Shown piece by piece: positions 6,610 to 31,256 of a stretch of 64,000 nucleotides of DNA; position 1 is the first letter of the stretch; every line of letters starts with the position of its first letter. The translations under genes were made by a program, and so were the position numbers. The stretch covers positions 121,352-185,351 of the forward strand of contig JBOFIJ010000006.1 in NCBI GenBank assembly GCA_051650105.1. The letters are read 5' to 3'. Below the pieces are notes generated by a model. The model ran no database searches, had not been told where the DNA came from, and was given only the letters and a program-made list of their open reading frames with translations. Origin of the DNA: Desulfovibrionaceae bacterium. Its GTDB lineage: Bacteria > Desulfobacterota > Desulfovibrionia > Desulfovibrionales > Desulfovibrionaceae.

Positions 6610-7198
6610 GTAGTAGTAATATAGTATTGATGTAACAAGGAGATTCTATGTTCATAATGTGCATATCTAATATAAAGTTATATGTTGTTGTTCTTACACA
6701 ATAACTTTACAAATGAAAAGAATGTTATGTAAAATGTTTTTTTGTGTTATTTTTTGTATTGTTTTCTTTCTTATTGGAAATAGAGAGTGTTATATTCTTT
6801 CTAAATTTGTAATGAAAAAAATATCATAGTGTTTATAATGTTCGTAAATGGAAATTTTTGTCGATATTGTTTATAAAAAAAATAGGATTGTATAAGAATA
6901 TATAGATGTTTCTATTTAGGAGAGAAAATTTTCTCTTTATTCATGAGAGTATTGATTTTTTATATGAAGTAGTACATATTCTCCACTGGTGTTTTTGGAA
7001 ATTAAGGATAATTTTATTTGATGCTCTTGGAAAATAGTGTATTTATAGTATAGTATTTCATAAATAAATTTCCATTACATAAGAATATATTATGTAGTAA
7101 AAGAATATGTATAATGTCATTATCTCGTTGAGAATATATGTTATTATTGTTCCTATCTTGTAGAAAACATTATTTTTTGTTGGGAAGGTGGATGAGAG

Positions 7199-7852
7199 AT
7201 GAGTAAAGAAGAAAAAGCCCTTTTTGTATTATGTTCTCTTAGAAGAAGGTATCCTGTAATTCCTACTCTGCTATATGCAAAGAACCCTTGGGAGCATCTT
7301 GTTGCTACTATTTTGTCTGCTCAGTGTACTGATGCACGAGTTAATATGATAACACCATATTTTTTTGAGATGTGGCCAACACCGTATGATCTATATGATG
7401 TGGAACAAGTAGAAGTTGAGAGTGTTATACGAAGTACTGGATTTTTTAGAAATAAAGCAAAACACCTAATAGGAAGTGCGAGAAGAATTATTGATTATTA
7501 TGGAGGTGAAGTTCCAAGTACGATGGAGGATTTGCTTTCTTTGCCTGGAGTTGCACGAAAAACAGCTAATGTTGTATTATGGGAACAATTTGGTATAAAT
7601 AAGGGTTTAGCAATAGATACTCATGTAAAAAGAATAATGCATCATTTAGGGCTCACAGAAAATACAAATCCAGATAAAGTTGAACAAGACCTTATTGTAC
7701 TTTTTCCTCAAGAGGACTGGGGGGATATAAATAAAATGATGGTTTGGTTTGGAAGAGAAGTATGCGATGCAAAAAAACCACGTTGTAATGGATGCTGTTT
7801 GTTTGACGTTTGTGAGTATAGCATAAACAAAAATATCGTAAGACCAGCCTAA
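7199..7852 (+). CDS. nth: Endonuclease III (HhH-GPD glycosylase/lyase with 4Fe-4S cluster)
   Basis: HhH motif LPGVARKTANVVL with the catalytic Lys, catalytic Asp in AIDTHVKRI, and Fe-S motif CDAKKPRCNGCCLFDVC. Confidence 0.9.
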   Translation: MSKEEKALFVLCSLRRRYPVIPTLLYAKNPWEHLVATILSAQCTDARVNMITPYFFEMWPTPYDLYDVEQVEVESVIRSTGFFRNKAKHLIGSARRIIDYYGGEVPSTMEDLLSLPGVARKTANVVLWEQFGINKGLAIDTHVKRIMHHLGLTENTNPDKVEQDLIVLFPQEDWGDINKMMVWFGREVCDAKKPRCNGCCLFDVCEYSINKNIVRPA

Positions 7853-7897
7853 GAACACAGTGCACTTATACAAGTCTCACGATACGTAATTTTGAAG

Positions 7898-8179
7898 CTA
7901 CTTGGATTTTACTTTTTCTTTAAGGCTCTTTGATGGAGTGAAGCGAGCAACTTTGGAAGAAGGTATCAATATTTCTTCACCAGTACGCAAATTCCTACCT
8001 TTACGGGCTGCACGTTCTACAATTTTAAAACTACCCAAATCAGGTAAAGAAACAGAATCACCTTGAGTCAACACATCTACTAAAGATGATATTACAACAG
8101 TTAATGCTGTTTCTGCCTGTGCTTTAGACGGATATCCACCTATTTTTTGAATTTTTTCAATAAGATCTGCTTTAGTCAT
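7898..8179 (-). CDS. hup: HU/IHF-family nucleoid-associated DNA-binding protein
   Basis: 93 aa with typical HU sequence MTKADLIEKI..GSFKIVERAARKGRNLRTGEEI. Confidence 0.88.
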   Translation of the reverse strand: MTKADLIEKIQKIGGYPSKAQAETALTVVISSLVDVLTQGDSVSLPDLGSFKIVERAARKGRNLRTGEEILIPSSKVARFTPSKSLKEKVKSK

Positions 8180-9939: not shown

Positions 9940-10923
9940 TTATACAGTGAAAATATAGGTATCTAATGCCTCTAAGAGCTCTTTTTTTGTTGTTTCCAAA
10001 TCATTTTTATAAAAAGCACCACAGGCATTTCTGTGGCCTCCACCACCAAAATGTTGTGCAAGTGGTATAATGTTGGTATCAAAAGAACGAATGCTTATTT
10101 TTACACCAGAAACAGAACCCGTGTGTTCTTTGAGCACAATAGATATGGATAACGATTGCAGGTGCATTATAAAAGAAACAATACCTTCTAGGTCTTCAGG
10201 TGTACAAGAGTATTGTTTTAAAAGAGTTTCTGTGATAGTTATAATAGAAACTTTATTTCCTTTATATGTTTCTAAATGCATGAGAATGTGTCCCCATAAG
10301 TTCATCTTTCCAGGAGTCCATTGACATTTATATTTTCGGATGAAGTCGGCAACACGTAAACCAGAATCAACAATATTTGCGGCTAAAGAAAGTGCTCGTG
10401 CATCTGTATTTGTATTAACAAAATTCCCTGTATCTTCGGTAATAGAAAGATAGAGAGCTTCTCCCAAAATACCAGTTAAAGGAATTCCTAGAAATAGAGC
10501 AATTTCTGCTACAATACATCCTGTTGCGGCGTAGGTAGCGTCTACAATATTTCCTATGTTAGCAAAATTTTTCCCAACAAGATGGTGATCTATATTAAAC
10601 GTGTTTAGTGCAGGAATAAGGGGGAACAATTCCTTTCCAACTCTTATGCTTTCACTAACATCAAGAATAATAAGACTCTCTGGCATAAACTCTTTTTGTA
10701 GCTCTTCTAAACTGGTGTAGACAGGAGAAAAAAATGGAAGAGGGGAAAGGTATTTTGGAATACCTGTGCTTGTATATAGGGCATAGCGCTTAGAAAGCGT
10801 TTCTAAAATGCATGCCATAGCAAGCATAGAGCCCAAAGCATCTCCGTCTGGGTTCTCATGTGCTGTGATAACATAATTATCGTAAAGAGCTAATTTCTTA
10901 GCAATACTCTCTGCAGTATCCAC
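9940..10923 (-). CDS. nrnA: DHH/DHHA1 phosphoesterase, NrnA-like oligoribonuclease/pAp phosphatase
   Basis: Motifs HENPDGDALGS, NIDHH and GGGGH. GTG at 10923 overlaps the rpmB stop as TAGTG and leaves the usual ~22 residues before the first DHH motif. The ORF-track ATG at 10992 would overlap rpmB by 70 nt. Confidence 0.8.
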   Translation of the reverse strand: MDTAESIAKKLALYDNYVITAHENPDGDALGSMLAMACILETLSKRYALYTSTGIPKYLSPLPFFSPVYTSLEELQKEFMPESLIILDVSESIRVGKELFPLIPALNTFNIDHHLVGKNFANIGNIVDATYAATGCIVAEIALFLGIPLTGILGEALYLSITEDTGNFVNTNTDARALSLAANIVDSGLRVADFIRKYKCQWTPGKMNLWGHILMHLETYKGNKVSIITITETLLKQYSCTPEDLEGIVSFIMHLQSLSISIVLKEHTGSVSGVKISIRSFDTNIIPLAQHFGGGGHRNACGAFYKNDLETTKKELLEALDTYIFTV

Positions 10924-11141
10924 TATTCTGTCACAAATTTCTCTATAAGCATAGGTTTTATAATTTTGCCAGAACGTATGCAACGCGTACATACACGGAC
11001 AGTTTGTATTCTGCCATTAGGGCTTTGATGTCTTGCATATTGCAAATTAGGGAAAAATTTTCTTTTTGTTTTTATATTTGAGTGGCTAACTCTATTTCCT
11101 GTTTCTGTTTTTTTGCCACAAAGTTCGCATTCTCTAGCCAT
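10923..11141 (-). CDS. rpmB: 50S ribosomal protein L28
   Basis: [34 protein letters not shown] is L28-typical. The internal Met at 11141 fits the normal length. Confidence 0.85.
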
Positions 11142-21942: not shown

Positions 21943-22725
21943 ATGAAAGTAGTAATATTGGCTGGTGGTTTGGGAACGCGGTTATCAGAAGAAACAACAC
22001 TATCTCCAAAGCCAATGCTTGAAATTGGTGGCCATCCAATACTATGGCATATTATGAAGATATATTCTTATTGGGGTTTTGATGATTTTATTATTCTTTC
22101 AGGGTATAAATCACATATTATTAAAGAATATTTCATTAATTATTATACAAGATATTCAGATATTACGGTGGATATGAGCAATAATAGTGTGGAAATTCAT
22201 AAAAATAGAAATGAATCTTGGAAAGTGACAATTATGTATACTGGCGAACATACAATGACAGGTGGAAGGCTTTTGCAAGTAAAAGATTTTATTGGAGAGA
22301 ATACTTTCATGCTTACATATGGTGATGGTTTAAGCGATGTTATTGTTCCACATTTATTAGAATTCCATAAGGAAGCTCGTAAAGTAGCTACTGTTTTGGG
22401 CATACAGTTATCTGGCAGGTTTGGAACAATTTCTATAGACGAAAACAGTATAGCTAATTCTTTTGAAGAGAAAAAAAGAGAAGAGCAATGGACTAATGGA
22501 GGTTTTTTTGTTCTAGAGCCTAGCATATTTGATTATTTAGATAATGACGATGCGTGTGTATTTGAAATAGAACCTATGGCAAGTCTTGTAGAAAAGCAAC
22601 AATTAGCAGTATTTAAACATACAGGATTTTGGCATGCAATGGATACATTAAAAGATAAAAATAATTTAACAAAAATGTGGTTTGAAGAAAAATCTCCGTG
22701 GAGTATATGGAAAAATACTATATAA
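21943..22725 (+). CDS. rfbF: Glucose-1-phosphate cytidylyltransferase
   Basis: MKVVILAGGLGTRLSEET..PKPMLEIGGHPILWHIMKIYS is characteristic of RfbF, and the ~257-260 aa length matches. Confidence 0.85.
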   Translation: MKVVILAGGLGTRLSEETTLSPKPMLEIGGHPILWHIMKIYSYWGFDDFIILSGYKSHIIKEYFINYYTRYSDITVDMSNNSVEIHKNRNESWKVTIMYTGEHTMTGGRLLQVKDFIGENTFMLTYGDGLSDVIVPHLLEFHKEARKVATVLGIQLSGRFGTISIDENSIANSFEEKKREEQWTNGGFFVLEPSIFDYLDNDDACVFEIEPMASLVEKQQLAVFKHTGFWHAMDTLKDKNNLTKMWFEEKSPWSIWKNTI

Positions 22726-23117
22726 AATGTGTTTTAATGAGAAGGAGTGCAAGAATGTGGTTATGCTTATTGATTGTGTCTGTGTGCTTGCAAAGCTGAT
22801 AAATGTTGAGGGGCCGTGAATGCCATTATGAAAAATGCTGCTATGTCATTATCTTTTAAGGAAGTGTTTGGGTATAGGTAGATATTGTTTTCTCCTTGTC
22901 TTGTAGTTTTATAGAATGAAAGAGTGAGAATTATGAGCAATAATATGTTTTGGTATACATTATCGTGTGGAGTTTTTATTTTCGTATGCACATAATAGTG
23001 TTTCTATATTTGGAAGAAATTGCTAGTGTAGTATACTTATGTGTAAAATATACTAGAAGCACATAGTATCATTGTGTTATTTTTTGGGTGCGTCTATTTT
23101 ATTAATAAGAGAGTATA

Positions 23118-23651
23118 ATGAGATATATTCAATTAAAAATTAAAGGGGCTTTTCTCCTTGAATATGAACGTATACAAGATGAGCGTGGTTCTTTTGCTCG
23201 TGAATTTTGTAAAAAGGAATTGAATTCTATGGGGATTACCTTTGATGTGTGTCAAATGAATATATCCCATAATAATAAAAGAGGAACAATTCGTGGTATG
23301 CATTATCAAATATTTCCTTATGAAGAACAGAAGATTGTTTTTTGTTCTACAGGGTCTTTATATGATGTTATAGTAGACTTGCGAAGAGATTCTGCAACAT
23401 ACCTGCAATGGATAGGGCACACATTGGATCCAAGCAATAATTCAATGCTTTTTATTCCTAAAGGATGTGCACATGGTTTTCAAACGTTAGAAGATAATAC
23501 AACGTTACACTACATAGTGGATGAATATTATATTCCAAGTGCATATGCTGGAGTGCGATATAATGATCCTTTGCTTGCTATAGATTTTCCTATACAAGAT
23601 GGTATTATTATTTCTGAAAGAGATGCCACATATAGCGATATAATAGCATGA
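23118..23651 (+). CDS. RmlC-fold NDP-4-keto-6-deoxyhexose 3,5-epimerase family protein
   Basis: Cupin blocks DERGSFAREF, RGMHYQ, YDVIVDLRRDS and GCAHGFQTL. Confidence 0.8.
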   Translation: MRYIQLKIKGAFLLEYERIQDERGSFAREFCKKELNSMGITFDVCQMNISHNNKRGTIRGMHYQIFPYEEQKIVFCSTGSLYDVIVDLRRDSATYLQWIGHTLDPSNNSMLFIPKGCAHGFQTLEDNTTLHYIVDEYYIPSAYAGVRYNDPLLAIDFPIQDGIIISERDATYSDIIA

Positions 23652-24487
23652 AAAGAGTATTGCTCACAGGATCAACGGGCTTAATAGGAAAAGAAGCAAT
23701 TCTTCCACTAAAAGAGCATGGTTTTACTGTAATTTGTCTCAATTCTTCAGAATGCAATCTTTTGAATTATGATGATGTCCGTGCATTTGTGAAAGATTCT
23801 TGTGCAACGCATCTTATGCATTTTGCATGGTTTACAGGAAGGGGGTATTTAACAAGCCCATTGAATGAAGAGTACTATGAAGCGAGCATGAACCTTTTAC
23901 AGGCTTTTGTACAATGTGGTGGTGAACGAGCTGTGTTTGCAGGGACGTGTCTTGAATATGCCAATAAGAATACTGCATTGCAAGAAGAAGATCCTCTTTC
24001 TTCCTCCTCTTTGTATGCGAAATATAAAAATATATTGCGTATTAATGCAGGAAAGTATACAAAAAGACACGACGTTTCTTTTGGATGGGGACGTATTTTT
24101 TATGCATATGGTTGTTCAGATGGCTCTGGTAGTTTGTTCTCGTATCTCGTGGAAAATTTACGAGAAAATAAGACAGTGCATATCCATAGTGGTGATTTGT
24201 TGAGAGATTATATATACACGAAAGATATAGTAAATGCTTTCATATGTATTTTGAGAAACCAAAATGATATACTTGTTAATGTTTGTACCGGAACCGCAGT
24301 ACGTATTGCTTTTTACGCCGAATGTATTGCGCAGTATATGAAAAAACCATTACTATTGCGTGTTGGCACTACCGTAACAGATGAAGCACCAATTATTATT
24401 GGAGAGAATACAAGGCTACAATCATTGGGGTATAGAACACAATATACTTTAGAAAAAGGACTACGGGAAATATTTTATGAAAGCTAA
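23648..24487 (+). CDS. Extended SDR, NDP-sugar 4-ketoreductase/epimerase-like (279 aa)
   Basis: Rossmann motif GSTGLIG and catalytic YAKYK (YxxxK). It has a 4-nt overlap with the upstream gene. Confidence 0.7.
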   Translation: MKRVLLTGSTGLIGKEAILPLKEHGFTVICLNSSECNLLNYDDVRAFVKDSCATHLMHFAWFTGRGYLTSPLNEEYYEASMNLLQAFVQCGGERAVFAGTCLEYANKNTALQEEDPLSSSSLYAKYKNILRINAGKYTKRHDVSFGWGRIFYAYGCSDGSGSLFSYLVENLRENKTVHIHSGDLLRDYIYTKDIVNAFICILRNQNDILVNVCTGTAVRIAFYAECIAQYMKKPLLLRVGTTVTDEAPIIIGENTRLQSLGYRTQYTLEKGLREIFYES

Positions 24488-25481
24488 GATAGAAACAAGA
24501 ATACATACAAAAAATCGTACCAAATTAGAAAGTGTTATACCCCTTAAGACGCCTCTTATTATTAATATAGATCCCTCAGATACATGTAATTTTCAATGTA
24601 ATTTTTGTCCAACAGGTGATAGACAGTTAATGAAAGAAACACCTGGAAGAAATTATGGAATAATGGATTTTGAATTATATAAAAAAGCCATTAATGATAT
24701 TTGTACATTCGATGAAAAAATAAAAGTATTACGTTTATATAAAGATGGGGAACCTCTTCTTAACCCAAAATTTTCGGAAATGATTGCGTATGCAAAAGAA
24801 CGTGAATGCTGTGAAAAAGTAGATACCACAACAAATGCTTCTTTGCTTACTCCAGAGCGTAGCCGTAAAATTATAGATGCTGGTCTTGATGGTATTAATA
24901 TTTCTATTGAGGGTGTCACTGCCGAGCAGTATAAAGATTTTTCTCATTATTCAATACAATATGATACATTGGTTGATAATATCCGTTTTTTTTATGAACA
25001 TAAAAAAGATTGTGAAATGCTTGTAAAGATAAATGGCGACTTATTAACAGAAGAGCAAAAACAAGAATTCTTTGATATATTTGGGAATATAACAGATAAA
25101 ATTTTTATTGAAAGCGTTATGGATTGTTGGCCTACATATGAAATTAATAAAATAGAGGTGAATAAAACTCGTGGGATATATGGACAAGAAATTAACGAAG
25201 TTCTTGTATGTCCATACGTATTTTACTCATTTGCTATTAATTCTAATGGAACAGTGAGCTTATGTTTCTTAGATTGGCACAGAAAATTGGTTATTGGAGA
25301 TATAAAGACAGAATCTGTGAAAGATATTTGGGAAAGTGAAGCATTACGAGAATACCAACGCCTTTTCTTGCGTGGAGATCGTAAATCTCATCCAATATGT
25401 AGGGATTGTGGACAGCTTAGACAGGGTCAACCAGATAATATTGATGCATTTGCAAAGTCATTGTTAGGAAAAGTATTATGA
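24477..25481 (+). CDS. Radical SAM protein with truncated SPASM/twitch-like C-terminal domain (paralog 1)
   Basis: CX3CX2C motif CNFQCNFC. The C-terminal part has CPYVFYSFAINSNGTVSLC (CX12GX4C) and CRDC. Confidence 0.8.
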   Translation: MKAKIETRIHTKNRTKLESVIPLKTPLIINIDPSDTCNFQCNFCPTGDRQLMKETPGRNYGIMDFELYKKAINDICTFDEKIKVLRLYKDGEPLLNPKFSEMIAYAKERECCEKVDTTTNASLLTPERSRKIIDAGLDGINISIEGVTAEQYKDFSHYSIQYDTLVDNIRFFYEHKKDCEMLVKINGDLLTEEQKQEFFDIFGNITDKIFIESVMDCWPTYEINKIEVNKTRGIYGQEINEVLVCPYVFYSFAINSNGTVSLCFLDWHRKLVIGDIKTESVKDIWESEALREYQRLFLRGDRKSHPICRDCGQLRQGQPDNIDAFAKSLLGKVL

Positions 25482-26503
25482 GTATACAACATAAATATAG
25501 AGTGAATAAAGAAAAGCATGAAGTGCTTGGCAATGTTGCTCCCCTAGAGGAGCCATTTGTCTTACTTATTGATCCTTCTAATTTATGTAATTTTAGGTGT
25601 AAATTTTGTCCAACAGGCGATCAAAAACTTATAAAGTCAACGGGAAGGTATAATGGTTTATTAGATTTTACGTTGTTCACAAAAATAATAGATGATTTAA
25701 AAGAATACAGTCGCCCAATTAAGACACTACGTTTGTATAAAGAAGGTGAGCCTCTGCTTAACCCCAAATTTGAAGAGATGGTGGCATATGCAAGGAAAAG
25801 TGCTTTTGTACAACGTATAGACACAACAAGTAATGGAGCATTATTAACACCTGAACGTAACAGAAAAATTGTAGAGGCTGGTCTTGATCAAATAAATATA
25901 TCTGTTAATGGTATAACAGCGGAACAAATATATTATTTTACGAAGACAAAAGTAAATTTTAGTGCATACGTGGATGCTATTAGGGATTTATATGAAAATA
26001 GGGGAAATTGTGAGATATCAATAAAAGCAATAAAAGAAAATTTAACAGAAGATGAGCAGAAAGTATTCTACGATATTTTTGGTCCTCTTTCAACAAGAAT
26101 AAGTTTAGAACATATTTCTCCTGCATGGCCTCAATTTGAGCTGCATGAGGATGTTATTAGTACATATACCGCAGGTAATTATGGGCAAGAAGTTTTAGAG
26201 CGAGAAGTGTGCCCCTATATATTTTATATAATGGTAATTAATTCAGATGGAAGAGTGAGTACATGTGTTGGGGATTGGCCAAATAAACTTATTGTTGGAG
26301 ACGTTCGAAAACAAAGTGTACGGGATATATGGAAAGGTGTTTTGTTAAATAAACATAGAATAGCACATTTAGAAGGAAAAAGGTGGGATGAACCTTTCTG
26401 TGCGGATTGTGAGGTGGTAACATATGGAACACTTGATAATTTAGATTCATACGCAGGGGAGATTCTTTCACGGATGCGTGCTAAAAATTTTATGGGAGAA
26501 TAG
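25478..26503 (+). CDS. Radical SAM protein with truncated SPASM/twitch-like C-terminal domain (paralog 2)
   Basis: CNFRCKFC, then CPYIFYIMVINSDGRVSTC and CADC. It is colinear with paralog 1 (LRLYKEGEPLLNPKF, TPERNRKIVEAGLD). An ATGA overlap joins it to paralog 1. Confidence 0.8.
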   Translation: MSIQHKYRVNKEKHEVLGNVAPLEEPFVLLIDPSNLCNFRCKFCPTGDQKLIKSTGRYNGLLDFTLFTKIIDDLKEYSRPIKTLRLYKEGEPLLNPKFEEMVAYARKSAFVQRIDTTSNGALLTPERNRKIVEAGLDQINISVNGITAEQIYYFTKTKVNFSAYVDAIRDLYENRGNCEISIKAIKENLTEDEQKVFYDIFGPLSTRISLEHISPAWPQFELHEDVISTYTAGNYGQEVLEREVCPYIFYIMVINSDGRVSTCVGDWPNKLIVGDVRKQSVRDIWKGVLLNKHRIAHLEGKRWDEPFCADCEVVTYGTLDNLDSYAGEILSRMRAKNFMGE

Positions 26504-26505
26504 GG

Positions 26506-27522
26506 GTGAAAATAGCGTTATTAGGTGGTTATGGTAATATAAGTTGGTGGTGCACAAAAGAAGCTCTTGAAAGAGGATATGATGTTTATGTAATTAACCG
26601 CCAAGAAACAATAAGAACAAGAAGAAAGGCTCCAGAAGGTGTGCATATTCTTATAGCAGATTATAGAAATATGGATGAAATGCATGCACTTCTCAAAAAG
26701 CATACGTTTGATGTTGTATGTGATTTTATATGCTATACAGAAGAACATGCAAAAAATGCAGTAGAGCTATTTAAAGGAAAAACAAAACAGTATATTTTTA
26801 TTAGTTCAGAAGCTATTTATGACAGAACAAAATGTTCTGCTCCTTTTAATGAGTCTTCTCCAAAATATGATGCAAGGACGGTGTCTGGTTATATTGCAGA
26901 TAAAATACGAGCAGAGCAAGTTTTTATAGAGGCCTATGAAAAAGAATCTTTTCCTGTCACTATTGTGCGTCCAGGGTTCACGTATGATACCATTCTTCCT
27001 AATTTTGCAATGGTCACATGTTTTACCGTATATAAAAGGTGTTTAGAGGGTTTCCCATGGATAATAATAGAAGATGGGGAAGCTATGTGGACATTCACCC
27101 ATTCAAGTGATTTTGCAAGAGCATGTGTTGCTTTATTTGGAAAGAAAAATGGTATTGGTGAAGATTATATTATTACAACAAATAGATTGTATTCTTGGAA
27201 TGAAGCATCTCGTGTTATTCTAGAGAATCTTGGTTTACAGGGACATTCTATAATTCATATTCCTTATACTGAAGAAAGGCTGTCTTCCTTATATCCATCA
27301 AAGGAACTTATTTACCACAGTGCTGTGGATAGTGTTTCTGATACCACAAAAATAAGTACTCTTTGTCCTATGTGGTCTCCACAAGTCTCTTTTGAAGAAG
27401 GGGTATCCGCAACGTTATTGTGGTTGAGTGAAGAGAATGAAAGACAACGTAGTGTGCCAAAAGTAGATGAAATATATAAAGATATTACAGCAAAGTACTA
27501 TGTTATCCATGAAGGAGAATGA
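26506..27522 (+). CDS. NAD-dependent epimerase/dehydratase-family SDR with atypical glycine motif
   Basis: N-terminal LLGGYGNIS takes the place of GxxGxxG. YIADK is a candidate YxxxK. GTG start. Confidence 0.6.
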   Translation: MKIALLGGYGNISWWCTKEALERGYDVYVINRQETIRTRRKAPEGVHILIADYRNMDEMHALLKKHTFDVVCDFICYTEEHAKNAVELFKGKTKQYIFISSEAIYDRTKCSAPFNESSPKYDARTVSGYIADKIRAEQVFIEAYEKESFPVTIVRPGFTYDTILPNFAMVTCFTVYKRCLEGFPWIIIEDGEAMWTFTHSSDFARACVALFGKKNGIGEDYIITTNRLYSWNEASRVILENLGLQGHSIIHIPYTEERLSSLYPSKELIYHSAVDSVSDTTKISTLCPMWSPQVSFEEGVSATLLWLSEENERQRSVPKVDEIYKDITAKYYVIHEGE

Positions 27523-27523
27523 T

Positions 27524-27628
27524 ATGAGAAGGTATTATCCTATTTATGATAGTTCTCATAGTAATTATATTTCTATTTTATGTGATACTATGAAAATAGT
27601 GGATAGTGTATGGGAAAGTGTAACATGA
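27524..27628 (+). pseudogene. Decayed duplicate of the 5' end of the downstream C-methyltransferase gene
   Basis: The 34 codons MRRYYPIYDSSHSNYISILCDTMKIVDSVWESVT* compare with MGRRCPICDSSNKSHISVLCDTMKILGSSFPES at 27655. Both Zn-ribbon Cys codons are now Tyr. Confidence 0.8.
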
Positions 27629-27654
27629 TAGTAAGGTAGTGAAGGAGAGTATAT

Positions 27655-28839
27655 ATGGGTAGACGGTGTCCTATTTGTGATAGTTCCAATAAAAGTCATA
27701 TTTCTGTCTTGTGTGATACTATGAAGATATTGGGTAGTTCTTTTCCAGAAAGTAGTAGTAATAATGTGGAATGTAGTGCTTGTGGTTGTGTGTATGTGGA
27801 TATGGAAGCAGTGCAGGATAATTTTACTACATACTATAGAGCTATTGCAAAATCGATTTCTTATAATACTATTTTTGGCAAAGAGAATACCAATACATAT
27901 TATGGTATGATATGGACTGCCTTAGAGAAATATGTACAGATGCATTCTTGTAAAAAAGAGGATATTGCAATTCTTGATGTGGGGTGTGGCTTTGGTGAAT
28001 TTATTGAATATTTACAAAATAGGGGTTATTGTAACGTACAGGGAGTGGAGCTTTCAGAGGAATGTGTTTCCAAAGCTAAAGAAAAAGGCTTACGTGTCAC
28101 TAAAGCAGATATTGTAAATGAGGAAGACTGCATAAAAGATCAATTTGATATCATTATATTTAGTCATGTGGGAGAACATATAGTAGATTTTAAAAAGGCT
28201 ATTGAGAACCTTAAAAAATTACTTAATAATGATGGATATCTTTATATGGAATTTCCCGATGCAAGAAAATATTGTGATGTTGATTTTGGTGCTTATTTCT
28301 TTACTACATACGAACATGTTATGCATGTAACAGACAAGACATTGCAAAATATTGCTTTAGTACATTCTTTAACATTGTTATCGTTTGATACATATCAAAA
28401 ATTAGATAAATATTATGTTATATTTGGAATATATAAGAAATCCTTTGAAGAAAAAACCAGCTCTTGTTTTTATGATACTACTGCAAAAGAGGCTTTTATG
28501 CAATACGAAGCTTTTTCGCAGGTAAAAATACCTTCTTTTGTGAAAGAATTAGAAGAATCACAAGAAGAAATTATTTTGTGGGGAATTGGTGCTTCCACTG
28601 CTATTTTACTTAGTAAAGTATTTCATTCTCATAATGTTATATATCTAATAGATTCTAATACACAAAGGCAAGGAATAGTATTTTGTATAAATAATAAGAA
28701 AGTGTCGGTAGAAGCTCCTAGTGCAATACAGAATTCTGTTGCTACCATAGTGGTGCTTCCGGAAATATATGGTACTGCTATAAAAAAAGAGCTTTATGAA
28801 GCAGGCTATAAAAATAATGTGCTATTACTTTCTATGTGA
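27655..28839 (+). CDS. NDP-hexose C-methyltransferase-like protein (Zn ribbon + class I SAM MTase + C-methyltransferase C-terminal domain; TylCIII architecture)
   Basis: N-terminal CPICDS..CSACG, SAM motif ILDVGCGFGEF, and a C-terminal Rossmann-like block ILWGIGASTAILL..LIDSNTQRQG typical of the Methyltransf_14 domain. Confidence 0.7.
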   Translation: MGRRCPICDSSNKSHISVLCDTMKILGSSFPESSSNNVECSACGCVYVDMEAVQDNFTTYYRAIAKSISYNTIFGKENTNTYYGMIWTALEKYVQMHSCKKEDIAILDVGCGFGEFIEYLQNRGYCNVQGVELSEECVSKAKEKGLRVTKADIVNEEDCIKDQFDIIIFSHVGEHIVDFKKAIENLKKLLNNDGYLYMEFPDARKYCDVDFGAYFFTTYEHVMHVTDKTLQNIALVHSLTLLSFDTYQKLDKYYVIFGIYKKSFEEKTSSCFYDTTAKEAFMQYEAFSQVKIPSFVKELEESQEEIILWGIGASTAILLSKVFHSHNVIYLIDSNTQRQGIVFCINNKKVSVEAPSAIQNSVATIVVLPEIYGTAIKKELYEAGYKNNVLLLSM

Positions 28840-29042
28840 AATATACTTTTGCTATATACTGTAAAAGAATAGGGTATTTAGAAAAAGATATAGTGGTATT
28901 TTTGTGGAGTACAAAAGAAAATAAATGCAAGAGTAGATGATAATTAACTATATGGGAAGCCATTAAAATTCTTGATCTTTATGATATTGTTTTGTACCAT
29001 AGTGCCCATATCTACATCCTTTTTATAAAGATAAACCTTATA

Positions 29043-30008
29043 ATGCAGACAAAAATATCTTCTCCATCCATTCAATCAACAAATCATACTACAGATGAAC
29101 GTGCTCTTGTTAGTATAACCATACCTACATATAATCGCGTAGACCTTCTTAAACTATGTTTAGAGAGTGCTGTATCACAAACATACGGTAATCTTGAAAT
29201 TATCGTTGCGGATAATCACTCAACAGACGGCACAGAAGAGTTATGTATGGAATATAAAAAACATGATTCTAGAATACGCTATTATAGACATGAAAAGAAT
29301 TTTGGTGGACAGTATAATATTAATTTTCTTTGTAAAAAAGCCACTGGTAACTATTTTTATTCTTTAAATGACGACGATTTTATATGCAATAATACAATTA
29401 TGAGATCTGTGTCTGTTTTGGAAAAAGATCCACAGTGCTCTGTAGTGTATGGAGCAACCAAATTATATAATATTGATGGTACTCTCAAATACTTTGAGAA
29501 GCATAACGATATTGTGGGAAATACTTTTGGGGAACGTGTGAGATCATTTTGTAAGCGTGGCCACGCATTACCTGTTACAACAGGGCTTATGAGAAAAGAA
29601 AATATTGATGCTGTAGGTGGCCAGGGAAGTTCTTTTTGTGAAGATCAACTATACATAGTAAAAATGTTTTATTTTGGCACAATGTTATTTCTTGATGATA
29701 TTTTTTTTCATAAAACTACTAAATGCAGTACTACTGTTACTTTGGACGCAATGAAAGAAGAGTATATTCTTCCAAGTGATATGCATTCAGGAAATTATAT
29801 GCATAAACTTACTTTGGAATATATGCATTCTATATTATATGATCCTTTTTATGAATTAAGACTGCAAAATGATGAAAAAATGGAATTAATATACTCTATA
29901 GTATTAGCATTTAATGATATTAATCAAAGTAGTACTAAAAAAAGTAGTACTAAAAAAAGGAGTAAATTAGCTAAAATAATGCGCATTATAAAGGGAAAAG
30001 AAATATGA
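29043..30008 (+). CDS. Family 2 glycosyltransferase
   Basis: VSITIPTYNRVDLLKLCLESAVSQTY..IIVADNHSTDGT and a DDD motif. The ATG at 29043 is preferred over the upstream TTG at 28992. Confidence 0.8.
   Translation: MQTKISSPSIQSTNHTTDERALVSITIPTYNRVDLLKLCLESAVSQTYGNLEIIVADNHSTDGTEELCMEYKKHDSRIRYYRHEKNFGGQYNINFLCKKATGNYFYSLNDDDFICNNTIMRSVSVLEKDPQCSVVYGATKLYNIDGTLKYFEKHNDIVGNTFGERVRSFCKRGHALPVTTGLMRKENIDAVGGQGSSFCEDQLYIVKMFYFGTMLFLDDIFFHKTTKCSTTVTLDAMKEEYILPSDMHSGNYMHKLTLEYMHSILYDPFYELRLQNDEKMELIYSIVLAFNDINQSSTKKSSTKKRSKLAKIMRIIKGKEI
29928..29957 (+). repeat. Perfect 15-bp tandem duplication inside the GT2 C-terminal tail
   Basis: agtagtactaaaaaa occurs twice and encodes SSTKK-SSTKK, in frame. 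Confidence 0.9.
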
Positions 30009-30011
30009 TAT

Positions 30012-31256
30012 ATGGCTGATGTATATAGAATCCTTCATATTGCACCACATTTTGGTGGTGGTATTGGAAGTACATTATCCACATGGCTGTCTTCTGATAC
30101 AAGTGCTATTCACAGTGTGGCATTGTTAGAATATGCAAATGAAAAAGCAATTGCTCTTAGTAGAGAGTATTCAATTTTCTTAATTGATAATATGCATTCC
30201 AAAATAGAAGATCTATTACAATTAATGGAAAATGCTGATATTGTGATTATACATTTTTGGAATCATCCTTTTTTATATAATTTCTTGGTGCGGTATAGAA
30301 TGCCAAAATCAAGAATAATTATATGGTCTCATATTTCTGGTATAGCATATCCCAATAGTATTCCTCAATCTATACTTACATATGGTAATAAATGTATTTT
30401 CACAACAGAAGCCAGTTTTCATTATATTGATGCTCCTAAAGGCCCACGATACGAAACTATTCTTTCTATTGCTTCTCTTGGTCGTTATAATAATACAGTG
30501 CCTAAAAAAAGGGCTTCTCCATTTACTATAGGTTATGTTGGTACTGTAAGTTATCTTAAAATGCATCCAGATTATATAAATATTCATAAAAGAACATCGG
30601 CAGATAGCATTATTATAGTTGGCGGAGATTCTGAACATGAAATAGCACAAGAAGCTGATTCTCGTTTTATTTTTACAGGAAAAGTAGATAGTGTTTTTAC
30701 TTATTTAGAAAAAATGGACGTTTTTGCTTATTTACTGCATCCCAAGCATTACGGAACGTCTGAGCATGTTTTACAGGAAGCATTATCTGCTGGAGTTGTT
30801 CCTGTTGTATTGAATAATCTCAGTGAATCCTATTTAATTCAGCATGCTATAACAGGATTTATTGCAAATACTATTGATGAATATATTGAATACATTGCTC
30901 TTTTAAAAAAGGATGTCCATCTATATAATATGTTTTCTAAAAACGCTAAGAAATATGCACAGGAATATTTCTCTATAAATACCATGATTACTGCTTGGAA
31001 AAGAGTATTTGAGAAGGTAATGGAAGAAGAAAAAAAGGAATATATCTGGAATACACAAAAACGAAGCTATACATCGCTTGAAATATTTTTGGAAAGTATA
31101 GGGAAATATGCACCTATGTTTTTGCAAGATGGAGAAGTCTGTTCTGCAAAATATTCTTTACATGAGGAGCATAAAGGTTTTCCTGGGCATTATTATAGGT
31201 TATTGGGTGGAGAAGAGCTTTATAATCTCATTCATTCAGCAACGGGTAGCAAATAG
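30012..31256 (+). CDS. GT-B fold (family 4-like) glycosyltransferase
   Basis: C-terminal EX7E-type block GTSEHVLQEALSAGVVPVV, 414 aa. Confidence 0.7.
   Translation: MADVYRILHIAPHFGGGIGSTLSTWLSSDTSAIHSVALLEYANEKAIALSREYSIFLIDNMHSKIEDLLQLMENADIVIIHFWNHPFLYNFLVRYRMPKSRIIIWSHISGIAYPNSIPQSILTYGNKCIFTTEASFHYIDAPKGPRYETILSIASLGRYNNTVPKKRASPFTIGYVGTVSYLKMHPDYINIHKRTSADSIIIVGGDSEHEIAQEADSRFIFTGKVDSVFTYLEKMDVFAYLLHPKHYGTSEHVLQEALSAGVVPVVLNNLSESYLIQHAITGFIANTIDEYIEYIALLKKDVHLYNMFSKNAKKYAQEYFSINTMITAWKRVFEKVMEEEKKEYIWNTQKRSYTSLEIFLESIGKYAPMFLQDGEVCSAKYSLHEEHKGFPGHYYRLLGGEELYNLIHSATGSK

Follow-up and report, generated by a model that had tools for sequence, protein, structure and literature searches.

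The radical SAM genes considered here, rSAM-A and rSAM-B (A and B for the families they represent), lie in an island of nine sugar-enzyme genes at 21943-31256 of a 64-kb stretch of Desulfovibrionaceae DNA (64,000 nucleotides, hereafter the window). The initial annotation described every neighbouring gene as a sugar enzyme. This holds inside the island but not beyond it, where PriA is encoded upstream and SSB downstream. The features are as follows:

21943..22725, + strand: RfbF, glucose-1-phosphate cytidylyltransferase, which makes CDP-D-glucose (NCBIfam TIGR02623, 356 bits vs cutoff 300)
22726..23117, no strand: non-coding gap of 392 bp, at the position of the CDP-glucose 4,6-dehydratase (RfbG) gene in most related loci
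23118..23651, + strand: RmlC-like NDP-4-keto-6-deoxyhexose 3,5-epimerase (Pfam dTDP_sugar_isom, E 1e-56; TIGR01221, 163 bits vs cutoff 156)
23648..24487, + strand: SDR1, extended short-chain dehydrogenase (Pfam Epimerase), directly 5' of rSAM-A
24477-25481, + strand: rSAM-A, 334 aa, radical SAM enzyme with a one-cluster twitch domain
nt 24585-24608, + strand: SAM-cluster Cys 37/41/44 of rSAM-A, motif CNFQCNFC
nt 25125-25127, + strand: clade-specific Cys217 of rSAM-A
nt 25209-25409, + strand: Cys 245/263/308/311 of rSAM-A, predicted ligands of the auxiliary cluster
25478-26503, + strand: rSAM-B, 341 aa, twitch radical SAM paralog of rSAM-A that belongs to its own orthologous clade, with Ala216 in the motif PAWP
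26506..27522, + strand: SDR2, extended SDR (Pfam Epimerase) with a nucleotide-sugar epimerase/dehydratase fold
27524..27628, + strand: degenerate copy of part of the methyltransferase gene, corresponding to its 5' end
27655..28839, + strand: methyltransferase (Pfam Methyltransf_23/11/25), in which a Cys-rich zinc ribbon at the N-terminus precedes a class I MTase domain and a C-terminal domain
28992..30008, + strand: family 2 glycosyltransferase, GT2 (Pfam Glycos_transf_2, E 2e-29)
30012..31256, + strand: GT1-family glycosyltransferase (Pfam Glycos_transf_1), the most constant partner of rSAM-A

Both radical SAM reading frames were recovered on the + strand as annotated, with the rSAM-A stop and the rSAM-B start sharing ATGA at 25478-25481. 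The rSAM-A gene also overlaps the upstream SDR1 gene by 11 nt. SDR1, whose C-terminus resembles GDP-fucose synthase and whose PDB relatives include GDP-6-deoxy-4-hexulose reductase, is probably a C4-ketoreductase. The methyltransferase at 27655 is distantly similar to TylC3-type NDP-hexose C-methyltransferases; its MTase and C-terminal domains can be aligned with a Methyltransf_13/14 protein of locus L026 (21% identity, E 1e-7). The open reading frame at 27524-27628, previously read as a decayed methyltransferase fragment, is indeed a partial copy of this gene, covering its first ~95 nt: 80 of 121 alignment columns agree with the methyltransferase 5' end, and both zinc-ribbon Cys have become Tyr (RRYYPIYDSS vs RRCPICDSS). 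The start codon of GT2 is uncertain, with a TTG at 28992 and an in-frame ATG 17 codons further 3'.

The colinear, end-to-end likeness of the two radical SAM proteins reported earlier is borne out by BLASTP (44% identity and 68% positives over 334 residues, 2 gaps, E 1e-111), an E value that excludes chance and establishes true homology. Both proteins carry the annotated SAM-cluster motif (CNFQCNFC and CNFRCKFC; C37, C41, C44) and the C-terminal CX12GX4C...CX2C motif (C245, C263, C308, C311). Across the family (122 members, 80 loci), no Cys other than these seven is conserved in every protein. Clade A, clade B and 26 further paralogs all retain the C-terminal four, in the pattern CX17C...CX2C, and every family-invariant residue is present in both window proteins. 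Pfam Radical_SAM (PF04055, cutoff 29.5 bits) matches the pair at 56 and 63 bits, and Pfam SPASM is above its cutoff in each; the latter model covers twitch domains too, which accounts for the match despite the four-Cys pattern. The full SPASM signature, with seven Cys (CX9-15GX4C...CX2CX5CX3C...C) and two auxiliary clusters, is absent from both, as only four C-terminal Cys are conserved.

The original reading of a twitch-like domain with one auxiliary cluster fits this conservation, and it also agrees with BtrN being the top solved relative, both in the profile search (E 1e-16, covering both domains) and in Foldseek (E 3e-14, TM 0.77 normalised to BtrN). In a PDB search, the isolated C-terminal 137 residues match BtrN only. 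The AF2 model of rSAM-A (pLDDT 92.7) has six β/α units, and the structure prediction proposed for the auxiliary-cluster region yielded a hairpin (251-261) and helices (281-298), as in a twitch domain. Orthology to BtrN itself (DOIA dehydrogenase) was considered and rejected, given ~16% identity and the location in a CDP-hexose island instead of a 2-deoxystreptamine aminoglycoside cluster. On sequence and model grounds, rSAM-A and rSAM-B are predicted to be functional radical SAM enzymes, each with one auxiliary [4Fe-4S] cluster on four Cys.

A and B form two separate orthologous groups, with 82 and 14 members, respectively. Identity is about 60-75% inside each group and 44% between them. The duplication is ancient and not local, which contradicts the initial description of the pair as tandem paralogs where this implies a recent local duplication. 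Clade A forms the core and is present in all 80 loci, at 54-73% identity. The loci span Melainabacteria, spirochaetes, Firmicutes, Bacteroidota, Chlorobi, Proteobacteria, Prochlorococcus, Pelagibacterales, CPR and archaea; the counts given here refer to these 80 genome loci, which are not phylogenetically independent and of which many lie on partial contigs. A and B represent old, very widespread families without a characterised member, and their substrate and reaction type are proposed from context and analogy.

The genomic context of A is dominated by sugar genes. Among the 80 loci, its partners are GT1 (60), RmlC (54), SDR1 (49, usually abutting A), RfbG (42), RfbF (40) and a TylC3-like C-methyltransferase (28). 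Five further loci, searched from B or SDR2, carry a matching gene set. Aliarcobacter cryaerophilus has the exact gene order of the window, plus RfbG and RfbH, and the Aliarcobacter locus L085 has a family 2 glycosyltransferase at the position matching GT2. In many loci, RfbH (716-720 bits vs cutoff 423) is located next to A and B. That A keeps company with CDP-glucose pathway genes and its own glycosyltransferase in very diverse genomes strongly supports the nucleotide-sugar substrate proposed in the initial annotation, and the lack of a precursor peptide or of any above-cutoff match to a RiPP model agrees with it.

Those two negative results also weigh against the reading of A and B as RiPP or protein maturases that merely happen to lie beside sugar genes. 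Pfam SPASM matches, weak sub-threshold matches to several RiPP maturase models, and the presence of anSME, SuiB, SkfB and EpeE among the Foldseek matches are consistent with it. However, the NCBIfam scores fall far under the cutoffs, both for the RiPP maturases (PapB 35 vs 340, PqqE 32 vs 381, mycofactocin 35 vs 265) and for other equivalogs (anSME 29 vs 349, MoaA 61 vs 284, prokaryotic viperin 35 vs 180), so that HMM classification places neither protein in a characterised peptide-modifying family. The absence of a nearby peptide substrate, first noted for the window, likewise extends to the related loci: among 422 small ORFs lying up to 4 kb from A, a recurring family was found only in one pair of near-identical genomes, and none of the 80 loci has a conserved small ORF. 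Together with four conserved C-terminal Cys instead of the seven of SPASM, and with translational coupling to sugar enzymes across phyla, this makes a maturase function extremely improbable. A and B instead almost certainly act on a sugar, proposed from context and analogy to be a CDP-activated hexose, and the best explanation as a whole, including their assignment as one-cluster radical SAM enzymes, is held with moderate confidence. The product of the island would be an unusual CDP-linked surface sugar.

The two families differ in their company. A occurs without B in 67 of the 80 loci, whereas SDR2 accompanies B in 12 of 13 loci and occurs in 3 of the 67 others (Fisher p 9e-11). In one locus (L087), the B-SDR2 pair is found without A. 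A methyltransferase gene follows B-SDR2 in 8 of the 13 B loci. The residues S100, Y129 and K133 of SDR2 are invariant; its best PDB sequence match is Pal, and its AF2 model (pLDDT 93) has Mth375 epimerase, Pal, RfbB and GalE as top Foldseek matches. The fold thus resembles NAD-retaining epimerases/dehydratases as much as simple reductases. With A mostly without B, and B varying together with SDR2 and once occurring with it alone, the two distinct steps suggested in the initial annotation are favoured. The heteromer offered there as the alternative is not, since a core A and an optional B point to different reactions and no obligate complex. The ATGA overlap and the adjacency of A and B, in either order, in 18/18 loci holding both are what an obligate heteromer catalysing a single reaction would predict, yet each protein also retains a full set of SAM-cluster and auxiliary-cluster Cys. 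This arrangement is accordingly regarded as highly improbable.

A and B also differ at position 217. The motif is xCWP in 79 of the 82 A proteins and PAWP in all B proteins; the other three A-like proteins have Tyr and are located outside sugar clusters. The remaining paralog clades carry mostly Ile, Val or Leu, and Cys only in two singleton paralogs. In the AF2 model, residue 217 lies five residues past β6, in a conserved loop of 33 residues, and its topology would place Cys217 on the active-site face. In the twitch epimerase EpeE, the catalytic Cys223 is similarly located on a flexible loop opposite SAM (PMC13012085), and HygY is described, in a citation within PMC10991966, as being converted from an epimerase to a dehydrogenase by a single Cys mutation.

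A pathway can be proposed from these comparisons, in which substrate, step order and reaction types are all assigned by analogy. RfbF would first make CDP-glucose, which in related loci would be converted into a CDP-6-deoxy-L-hexose by RfbG, the RmlC-like epimerase and SDR1. Biochemical work on Campylobacter jejuni HS:41 has demonstrated this four-enzyme logic of RfbF, RfbG, RmlC-like epimerase and C4-reductase (PMC12369002). The radical enzymes would then alter positions out of reach of C4 keto-enol chemistry, and GT1 and GT2 would move the product onto a surface glycan. In both A and B, a 5'-deoxyadenosyl radical would abstract a C-H hydrogen of the sugar. In A, Cys217 could return a hydrogen atom to the opposite face, giving net epimerisation with no partner required. 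In B, with Ala at this position, oxidation of the radical via the auxiliary cluster may, as in BtrN, yield a keto-sugar, which SDR2 would reduce, in many loci after a TylC3-like methyltransferase step. A would thus be a self-contained radical epimerase and B a BtrN-like dehydrogenase acting in an optional second step. In many A loci, a methyltransferase directly follows A, an arrangement that a keto-generating dehydrogenase A with SDR1 as its reductase would fit too.

The window departs from this scheme in one respect. In loci including L005, L009, L026 and L085, RfbG separates RfbF from RmlC, but the 392-bp gap at 22726..23117 holds no RfbG remnant and no sizeable ORF. A tblastn search with three RfbG proteins returned nothing credible in the gap or in the whole 64-kb window, and RfbH is also absent from the window. 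A 4-keto-6-deoxy route would therefore need an RfbG gene elsewhere in the genome, or the island is perhaps not fully functional. It is also conceivable that in RfbG-less islands B with SDR2, or A, supplies the keto-sugar, through BtrN-like C4 oxidation of CDP-glucose, 5,6-dehydration and ene reduction by the Pal-like SDR2. The presence of RfbF, RmlC and SDR1 without RfbG in the window would be explained in this way, and the relationship of SDR2 to Pal in sequence and to RfbB 4,6-dehydratases in fold is compatible with it. By a rough count, RfbG is absent in ~5 of 15 RfbF-bearing B loci vs ~2 of 30 B-less ones, and four RfbG-less loci carry, between RfbF and RmlC, a member of a third twitch radical SAM family, G. 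However, most B-SDR2 loci also hold a bona fide RfbG (TIGR02622, 480 bits), family G often occurs with RfbG-like genes in metagenomic loci, and RfbG may lie outside the window. Moreover, SDR2 appears to have SSEA in place of the TDE acid/base pair of RmlB-type dehydratases. Such a supply of keto-sugar by radical chemistry is considered very unlikely. A broader proposal, in which A, B, G and the paralog families c3 and c8 would form a twitch radical SAM toolkit that re-activates unactivated CDP-hexose carbons, and in which RfbG-less islands would use a radical enzyme and the Pal-like SDR2 instead of the NAD-dependent 4,6-dehydratase, is quite unlikely as well. If true, it would amount to a radical route into 6-deoxy/keto sugars and to undescribed rare sugars in bacterial and archaeal surface glycans.

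Another alternative is that A and/or B are radical 1,2-diol dehydratases of the AprD4/BlsE type. A radical on the carbinol carbon would expel the adjacent hydroxyl, and the neighbouring SDR (SDR2 for B, SDR1 for A) would reduce the resulting deoxy-keto sugar, with net deoxygenation to a di- or trideoxyhexose. AprD4 is a recognised radical SAM diol dehydratase (PMC13598754), and the tight pairing of B with SDR2, including the locus in which they stand alone, mirrors that of AprD4 with AprD3. Foldseek also returns DesII and BlsE, the latter (TM 0.64/0.65) with the lowest rmsd among the top matches. Yet by both sequence and fold the closest relative is a dehydrogenase, BtrN; SDR2 is nearer to epimerases/dehydratases than to dedicated ketoreductases; and RfbH, the classical enzyme for 3-deoxygenation, is already encoded beside A and B in many loci. 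In addition, A remains 60-70% identical between loci in which C3 is predicted to carry OH, H (those with RfbH) or a C-methyl branch (those with a C-methyltransferase), which would argue against a chemistry that depends on a hydrogen at C3 or on a diol at C2/C3 or C3/C4. A diol dehydratase is therefore possible, although unlikely, and the division into an epimerase A and a dehydrogenase B is preferred.

Thousands of genomes encode machinery of the A/B type, and they range from those of gut Firmicutes and spirochaetes to those of Prochlorococcus, Pelagibacterales, CPR bacteria and archaea. The core genes A, GT1, SDR1 and RmlC also make up a four-gene block on a plasmid of the pig pathogen Brachyspira hyodysenteriae, and the GT1 of the island is 38% identical to the glycosyltransferase of this virulence-marker block. 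Absence of the plasmid block predicts reduced pathogenic potential, and as late as 2025 the block was described as functionally undefined (PMC4267127, PMC12131820). Solving the reactions of A and B would define new rare sugars, explain this virulence marker, and yield enzymes for the epimerisation or oxidation of nucleotide sugars at unactivated positions. With Cys in A where B naturally has Ala, the pair also provides a ready test of the choice between epimerisation and dehydrogenation in twitch enzymes.

To our knowledge, all characterised twitch-domain radical SAM sugar enzymes belong to aminoglycoside antibiotic pathways and act on free intermediates. The closest of them, BtrN (2-deoxy-scyllo-inosamine dehydrogenase of the butirosin pathway; PDB 4M7T/4M7S), likewise consists of a radical SAM core followed by a one-cluster twitch domain (CX17-18C...CX2C). 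However, it is only ~16% identical to A and B, which are ~85 residues longer, and it lacks a complete sixth β/α unit and the 33-residue loop. Its gene belongs to an aminoglycoside cluster, whereas A and B lie among CDP-hexose surface-glycan genes, and A has the extra clade-specific Cys. The BtrN substrate is a carbohydrate-like secondary alcohol (PMC13598754).

A second comparison is with HygY, NeoN and EpeE, which have a twitch-type single auxiliary cluster and a non-ligand loop Cys facing the substrate; the parallel with Cys217 of A, where B has Ala, is one of topology only. These enzymes are radical epimerases in which the catalytic Cys is the hydrogen donor. The substrates of HygY and NeoN are free aminoglycoside intermediates and that of EpeE is a peptide; EpeE ranks in the middle of the Foldseek matches (E about 2e-9). 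AprD4/AprD3 and BlsE combine a radical SAM sugar enzyme with an adjacently encoded NAD(P)H enzyme, as A and B do with an SDR, although AprD4 is comparable by gene pairing only and the substrates of these systems, unlike those predicted for A and B, are not nucleotide sugars. DesII is the well-studied radical SAM enzyme acting on a nucleotide-activated deoxysugar (TDP-4-amino-4,6-dideoxyglucose) and is among the sequence and fold matches, but these are much weaker than those to BtrN; it has ~490 residues and is not known to have a twitch auxiliary cluster.

On the pathway side, RfbF, RfbG, an RmlC-like epimerase and a C4-reductase have equal roles in the CDP-6-deoxy-L-altrose pathway of Campylobacter jejuni HS:41 and in the CDP-3,6-dideoxyhexose pathways of Yersinia/Salmonella (PMC12369002). 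Some A/B loci also carry RfbH (E1); in those RfbH-bearing loci that were looked at, no gene for an E3 reductase was noticed. These CDP-6-deoxyhexose pathways proceed without radical SAM enzymes, unlike the A/B loci, which place twitch radical SAM machinery in CDP-glucose-based cell-surface glycan islands.

The radical SAM enzymes rSAM-A and rSAM-B (hereafter A and B) are encoded within a compact sugar island at 21943-31256, bounded by PriA on one side and SSB on the other. The genes follow one another in the order given below.

RfbF: glucose-1-phosphate cytidylyltransferase, first gene of the island, above the equivalog cutoff
22726-23117: 392-bp gap between RfbF and RmlC, the usual place of RfbG (CDP-glucose 4,6-dehydratase) in most related loci
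RmlC-like 3,5-epimerase: after the gap and before SDR1, above cutoff
SDR1: extended SDR, upstream of A, with an 11-nt overlap
24477-25481, + strand: A, 334 aa, intact ORF
25478-26503, + strand: B, 341 aa, intact ORF
SDR2: extended SDR, downstream of B
27524-27628: methyltransferase fragment, partial copy of the first ~95 nt of the downstream methyltransferase gene (27655)
Zinc-ribbon methyltransferase
GT2 and GT1: glycosyltransferases

The initial annotation described A and B as two overlapping paralogous radical SAM ORFs with a four-Cys, twitch-like domain, and both points are confirmed. The stop codon of A overlaps the start codon of B in ATGA, and the two proteins align over their full length with 44% identity, 68% similarity and two single-residue gaps (E 1e-111). 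Both contain the CX3CX2C motif (Cys37/41/44) and the C-terminal CX12GX4C...CX2C motif (Cys245/263/308/311), and Pfam Radical_SAM and SPASM score above cutoff for each. Among 122 family members, taken from 80 related loci and the window, the only universally conserved Cys are the three of the SAM cluster and the four at the C-terminus. As judged from sequence, this pattern is that of a one-cluster twitch domain, not of a seven-Cys SPASM domain.

The best solved relative is BtrN, whose core and C-terminal domain are both matched by the family profile (E 1e-16), with MoaA next. The last 137 residues alone match BtrN as the sole PDB entry, and this search aligned neither EpeE nor SpeY to the loop and twitch region. 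The AlphaFold model of A (pLDDT 92.7, pTM 0.91) predicts six β/α units, followed by a 33-residue loop and by a β-hairpin and helices bearing the four Cys. Foldseek with this model ranks BtrN first (E 3e-14, TM 0.77 normalised to BtrN), followed by anSME, DesII, SuiB, BlsE, MoaA, EpeE and SpeY. Assignment of A and B to a named family was rejected, since all NCBIfam matches are sub-threshold, including tungsten-cofactor maturase (79 vs a cutoff of 380), MoaA (61 vs 284), anSME (29 vs 349) and viperin (35 vs 180). The PapB score is also far below cutoff (35 vs 340), and neither protein falls into a characterised peptide-modifying family. Public annotation is limited to "radical SAM/SPASM domain-containing protein", and no biochemical study of the A or B clades was found in the searchable full-text literature.

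At E < 1e-10, A has matches in more than 2,600 protein clusters, and hundreds of these are 65-75% identical to it. Limiting the survey to one genome per species gave 80 loci, in which the identity of A ranges from 54 to 73%. The sources include Melainabacteria, Brachyspira, Treponema, Clostridia, Negativicutes, Bacteroidota, Chlorobi, Ignavibacteria, Delta-, Epsilon-, Alpha- and Gammaproteobacteria, Planctomycetes, Prochlorococcus, Pelagibacterales, several CPR phyla, Methanoperedenaceae and Promethearchaeota.

Genes found with A in the 80 loci (best-hit classification of all ORFs; many contigs are truncated)
GT1: 60/80
RmlC (3,5-epimerase): 54/80
SDR1: 49/80
RfbG: 42/80, TIGR02622 ~480 bits where tested
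RfbF: 40/80
Window-type zinc-ribbon methyltransferase: 35/80
TylC3-like C-methyltransferase: 28/80
RfbH/E1 (3-dehydrase): 16/80

The most frequent gene order is RfbF-RfbG-RmlC-(C-MT)-SDR1-A-(MT)-GT1. In C. jejuni HS:41, biochemical work has established how RfbF, RfbG, a 3,5-epimerase and a C4-reductase contribute to CDP-6-deoxy-L-hexose synthesis (PMC12369002). The absence of a nearby peptide substrate, previously noted for the window alone, extends to the family: clustering of the 422 small ORFs located up to 4 kb from A revealed no recurrent family and no conserved precursor-peptide gene, the only repeats occurring within one near-identical genome pair. Together with the CDP-sugar neighbours of A across the 80 loci, this favours the nucleotide-sugar reading proposed in the initial annotation and supports A and B as a twitch-domain radical SAM pair dedicated to a CDP-sugar pathway rather than to a peptide.

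Aliarcobacter cryaerophilus carries RfbF-RfbG-RmlC-SDR1-RfbH-A-B-SDR2-MT-GT2-GT1, which is the exact order of the window with two extra genes. In Ruminococcus sp. HUN007 (L086, 553-1903 and 4070-13069), flagellin genes are immediately followed by an RfbF-RfbG-RfbH-GT1-SDR1-RmlC-SDR2-B-A cassette, which hints that flagellin may be glycosylated in this species. One A+B+SDR2 locus (L088, 2016-4265) encodes, next to RfbF, a 749-aa protein in which a 4,6-dehydratase-type SDR is fused to a TylC3-like C-methyltransferase (Methyltransf_13 and others). Several A/B loci contain RfbH (> 680 bits) without an obvious E3 reductase gene (L009 2970-8597; L081 4558-6015; L085, A. cryaerophilus, 6644-7984; L086 5904-7232). 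L009 additionally encodes a YerE-like ThDP enzyme, which points to branched, yersiniose-type 3,6-dideoxyhexoses. The idea that A or B stands in for E1/E3 in 3-deoxygenation was not accepted as general, since RfbH is also present in many loci with A and B.

On clustering, the family splits into an A clade of 82 proteins, a B clade of 14 and several smaller paralog clades. One of these, c3 (Ile at position 217), always adjoins the window-type zinc-ribbon methyltransferase (L034, L044, L052, L056 and L074) and forms a second recurrent radical SAM/methyltransferase pairing. B orthologs share 50-75% identity with the window B and only ~44% with A; by sequence, A and B represent separate, ancient lineages. 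B occurs in 13 of the 80 A loci, and SDR2 is present in 12 of these 13 vs 3 of the 67 others (Fisher p 9e-11, from counts that are not phylogenetically independent); two of the three loci with SDR2 and no B are contigs ending right after SDR2. Searches started from B or SDR2 added five further contexts (a 3.9-Mb genome, an abundant Lachnospiraceae, A. cryaerophilus, Ruminococcus sp. HUN007 and a JGI contig), each with one A-type and one B-type gene and all sharing SDR2, RmlC, SDR1, RfbF, RfbG and GT1. An isolated B + SDR2 pair lies on a 739-kb contig (L087, 8001-10033), and genes for A, RfbF, RmlC and glycosyltransferases are all absent within 8 kb of it. A is thus the core enzyme, and B and SDR2, often accompanied by a methyltransferase, form an add-on module. 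The suggestion that A and B might form a heteromer fares less well: with B in so few A loci and B + SDR2 occurring alone in L087, an obligate heteromer is unlikely.

The two clades are also separated at position 217. The motif is xCWP with Cys217 in 79 of the 82 A proteins and Tyr in the remaining three, always PAWP in B, and mostly Ile, Val or Leu in the other paralog clades, with Cys in two singleton paralogs. In the model of A, Cys217 is placed five residues past strand β6, in a long, highly conserved loop toward the twitch domain and on the barrel face that holds the active site in radical SAM enzymes; the remaining semi-conserved Cys (112, 179) are predicted at N-terminal strand ends. The Tyr217 proteins (DYWP; L068, L071 and L077, genes at about 10001-11008, in L077 at 511-1530) have no detected sugar genes around them. 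That of L071 neighbours agmatine deiminase, CN-hydrolase and transporters, a polyamine/transport context that offers no functional clue.

In twitch-type epimerases, a non-ligand Cys serves as the hydrogen-atom donor. In EpeE this residue, Cys223, is located in a flexible loop opposite SAM (PMC13012085), and according to the title of a study cited in PMC10991966, mutation of the HygY Cys yields a dehydrogenase. The clade-specific Cys217, considered alongside these donors, leads to the proposal that A is an epimerase and B a dehydrogenase. By this analogy, A would be a self-contained radical epimerase of a CDP-6-deoxyhexose, a property that would account for its lack of a dedicated partner, and B would be a BtrN-like dehydrogenase yielding a keto product that SDR2 may reduce. 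Where a TylC3-like methyltransferase is present, C-methylation next to the new ketone could precede this reduction. Across loci predicted to leave OH, H (RfbH loci) or a C-methyl branch at C3, A remains well conserved, which suggests that it acts away from C3. The main rival to the epimerase-dehydrogenase proposal is diol dehydration of the AprD4/BlsE type, followed by reduction.

SDR2 is modelled (pLDDT 93.4) as an extended SDR with a nucleotide-sugar epimerase/dehydratase fold (top matches Mth375, Pal, RfbB, UDP-GlcA 4-epimerase and GalE), and the fold search does not separate reductase, epimerase and dehydratase. The window methyltransferase shares 21% identity (E 1e-7) with a Methyltransf_13/14 protein from a related locus, a TylC3-type NDP-hexose C-methyltransferase, over the catalytic and C-terminal domains. 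The short ORF at 27524-27628 was correctly recognised as a decayed methyltransferase fragment: it agrees with the 5' end of that gene at 80 of 121 alignment columns, with Tyr codons in place of both zinc-ribbon Cys codons.

Three queries retrieved neither RfbG nor a pseudogene remnant from the gap or the whole 64 kb, and the window also lacks RfbH and the rSAM-G family. RfbG may be encoded in another part of the genome, the keto-sugar may instead come from the radical enzymes and SDR2, or the island may be decaying. Decay would fit the duplicated methyltransferase fragment, but none of the nine island ORFs is broken, and no family-invariant residue has been lost from A or B. Related loci hold a third four-Cys twitch family, G (367-383 aa, ~24% identical to A and B, RfbF-linked; L084 5078-6181, L014 5597-6748, L070 2284-3384, L051 49-1044, also L089-L108). 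In four genome loci without RfbG, G lies between RfbF and RmlC, exactly at the normal site of RfbG, which would fit a strict replacement. In metagenomic loci, however, G often occurs together with RfbG-like genes, which leaves replacement as no more than a candidate role. Treponema primitia, one of the four, retains RfbH.

The family also includes a virulence-associated member. Gene 13 of the Brachyspira hyodysenteriae WA1 plasmid is an A ortholog (62% identity to the window A), and pBHWA1 genes 13-16 correspond to A, GT1, SDR1 and RmlC (L084, 6202-10011). Absence of this block predicts reduced pathogenic potential in swine dysentery strains (PMC4267127), and in a 2025 survey of 251 genomes the four still count as putative virulence genes whose function is unknown (PMC12131820). 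Six more genes on the plasmid are annotated as radical SAM/SPASM, and four of these follow directly after the A ortholog. What makes the pair interesting is how widespread the family is, its link to virulence and the natural contrast of Cys in A with Ala in B. A and B appear to be a known kind of enzyme in a variant form, twitch radical SAM proteins in a CDP-sugar pathway. Their closest characterised relatives, BtrN, HygY, NeoN, SpeY, DesII, AprD4 and BlsE, all belong to antibiotic pathways, and none is orthologous to A or B.
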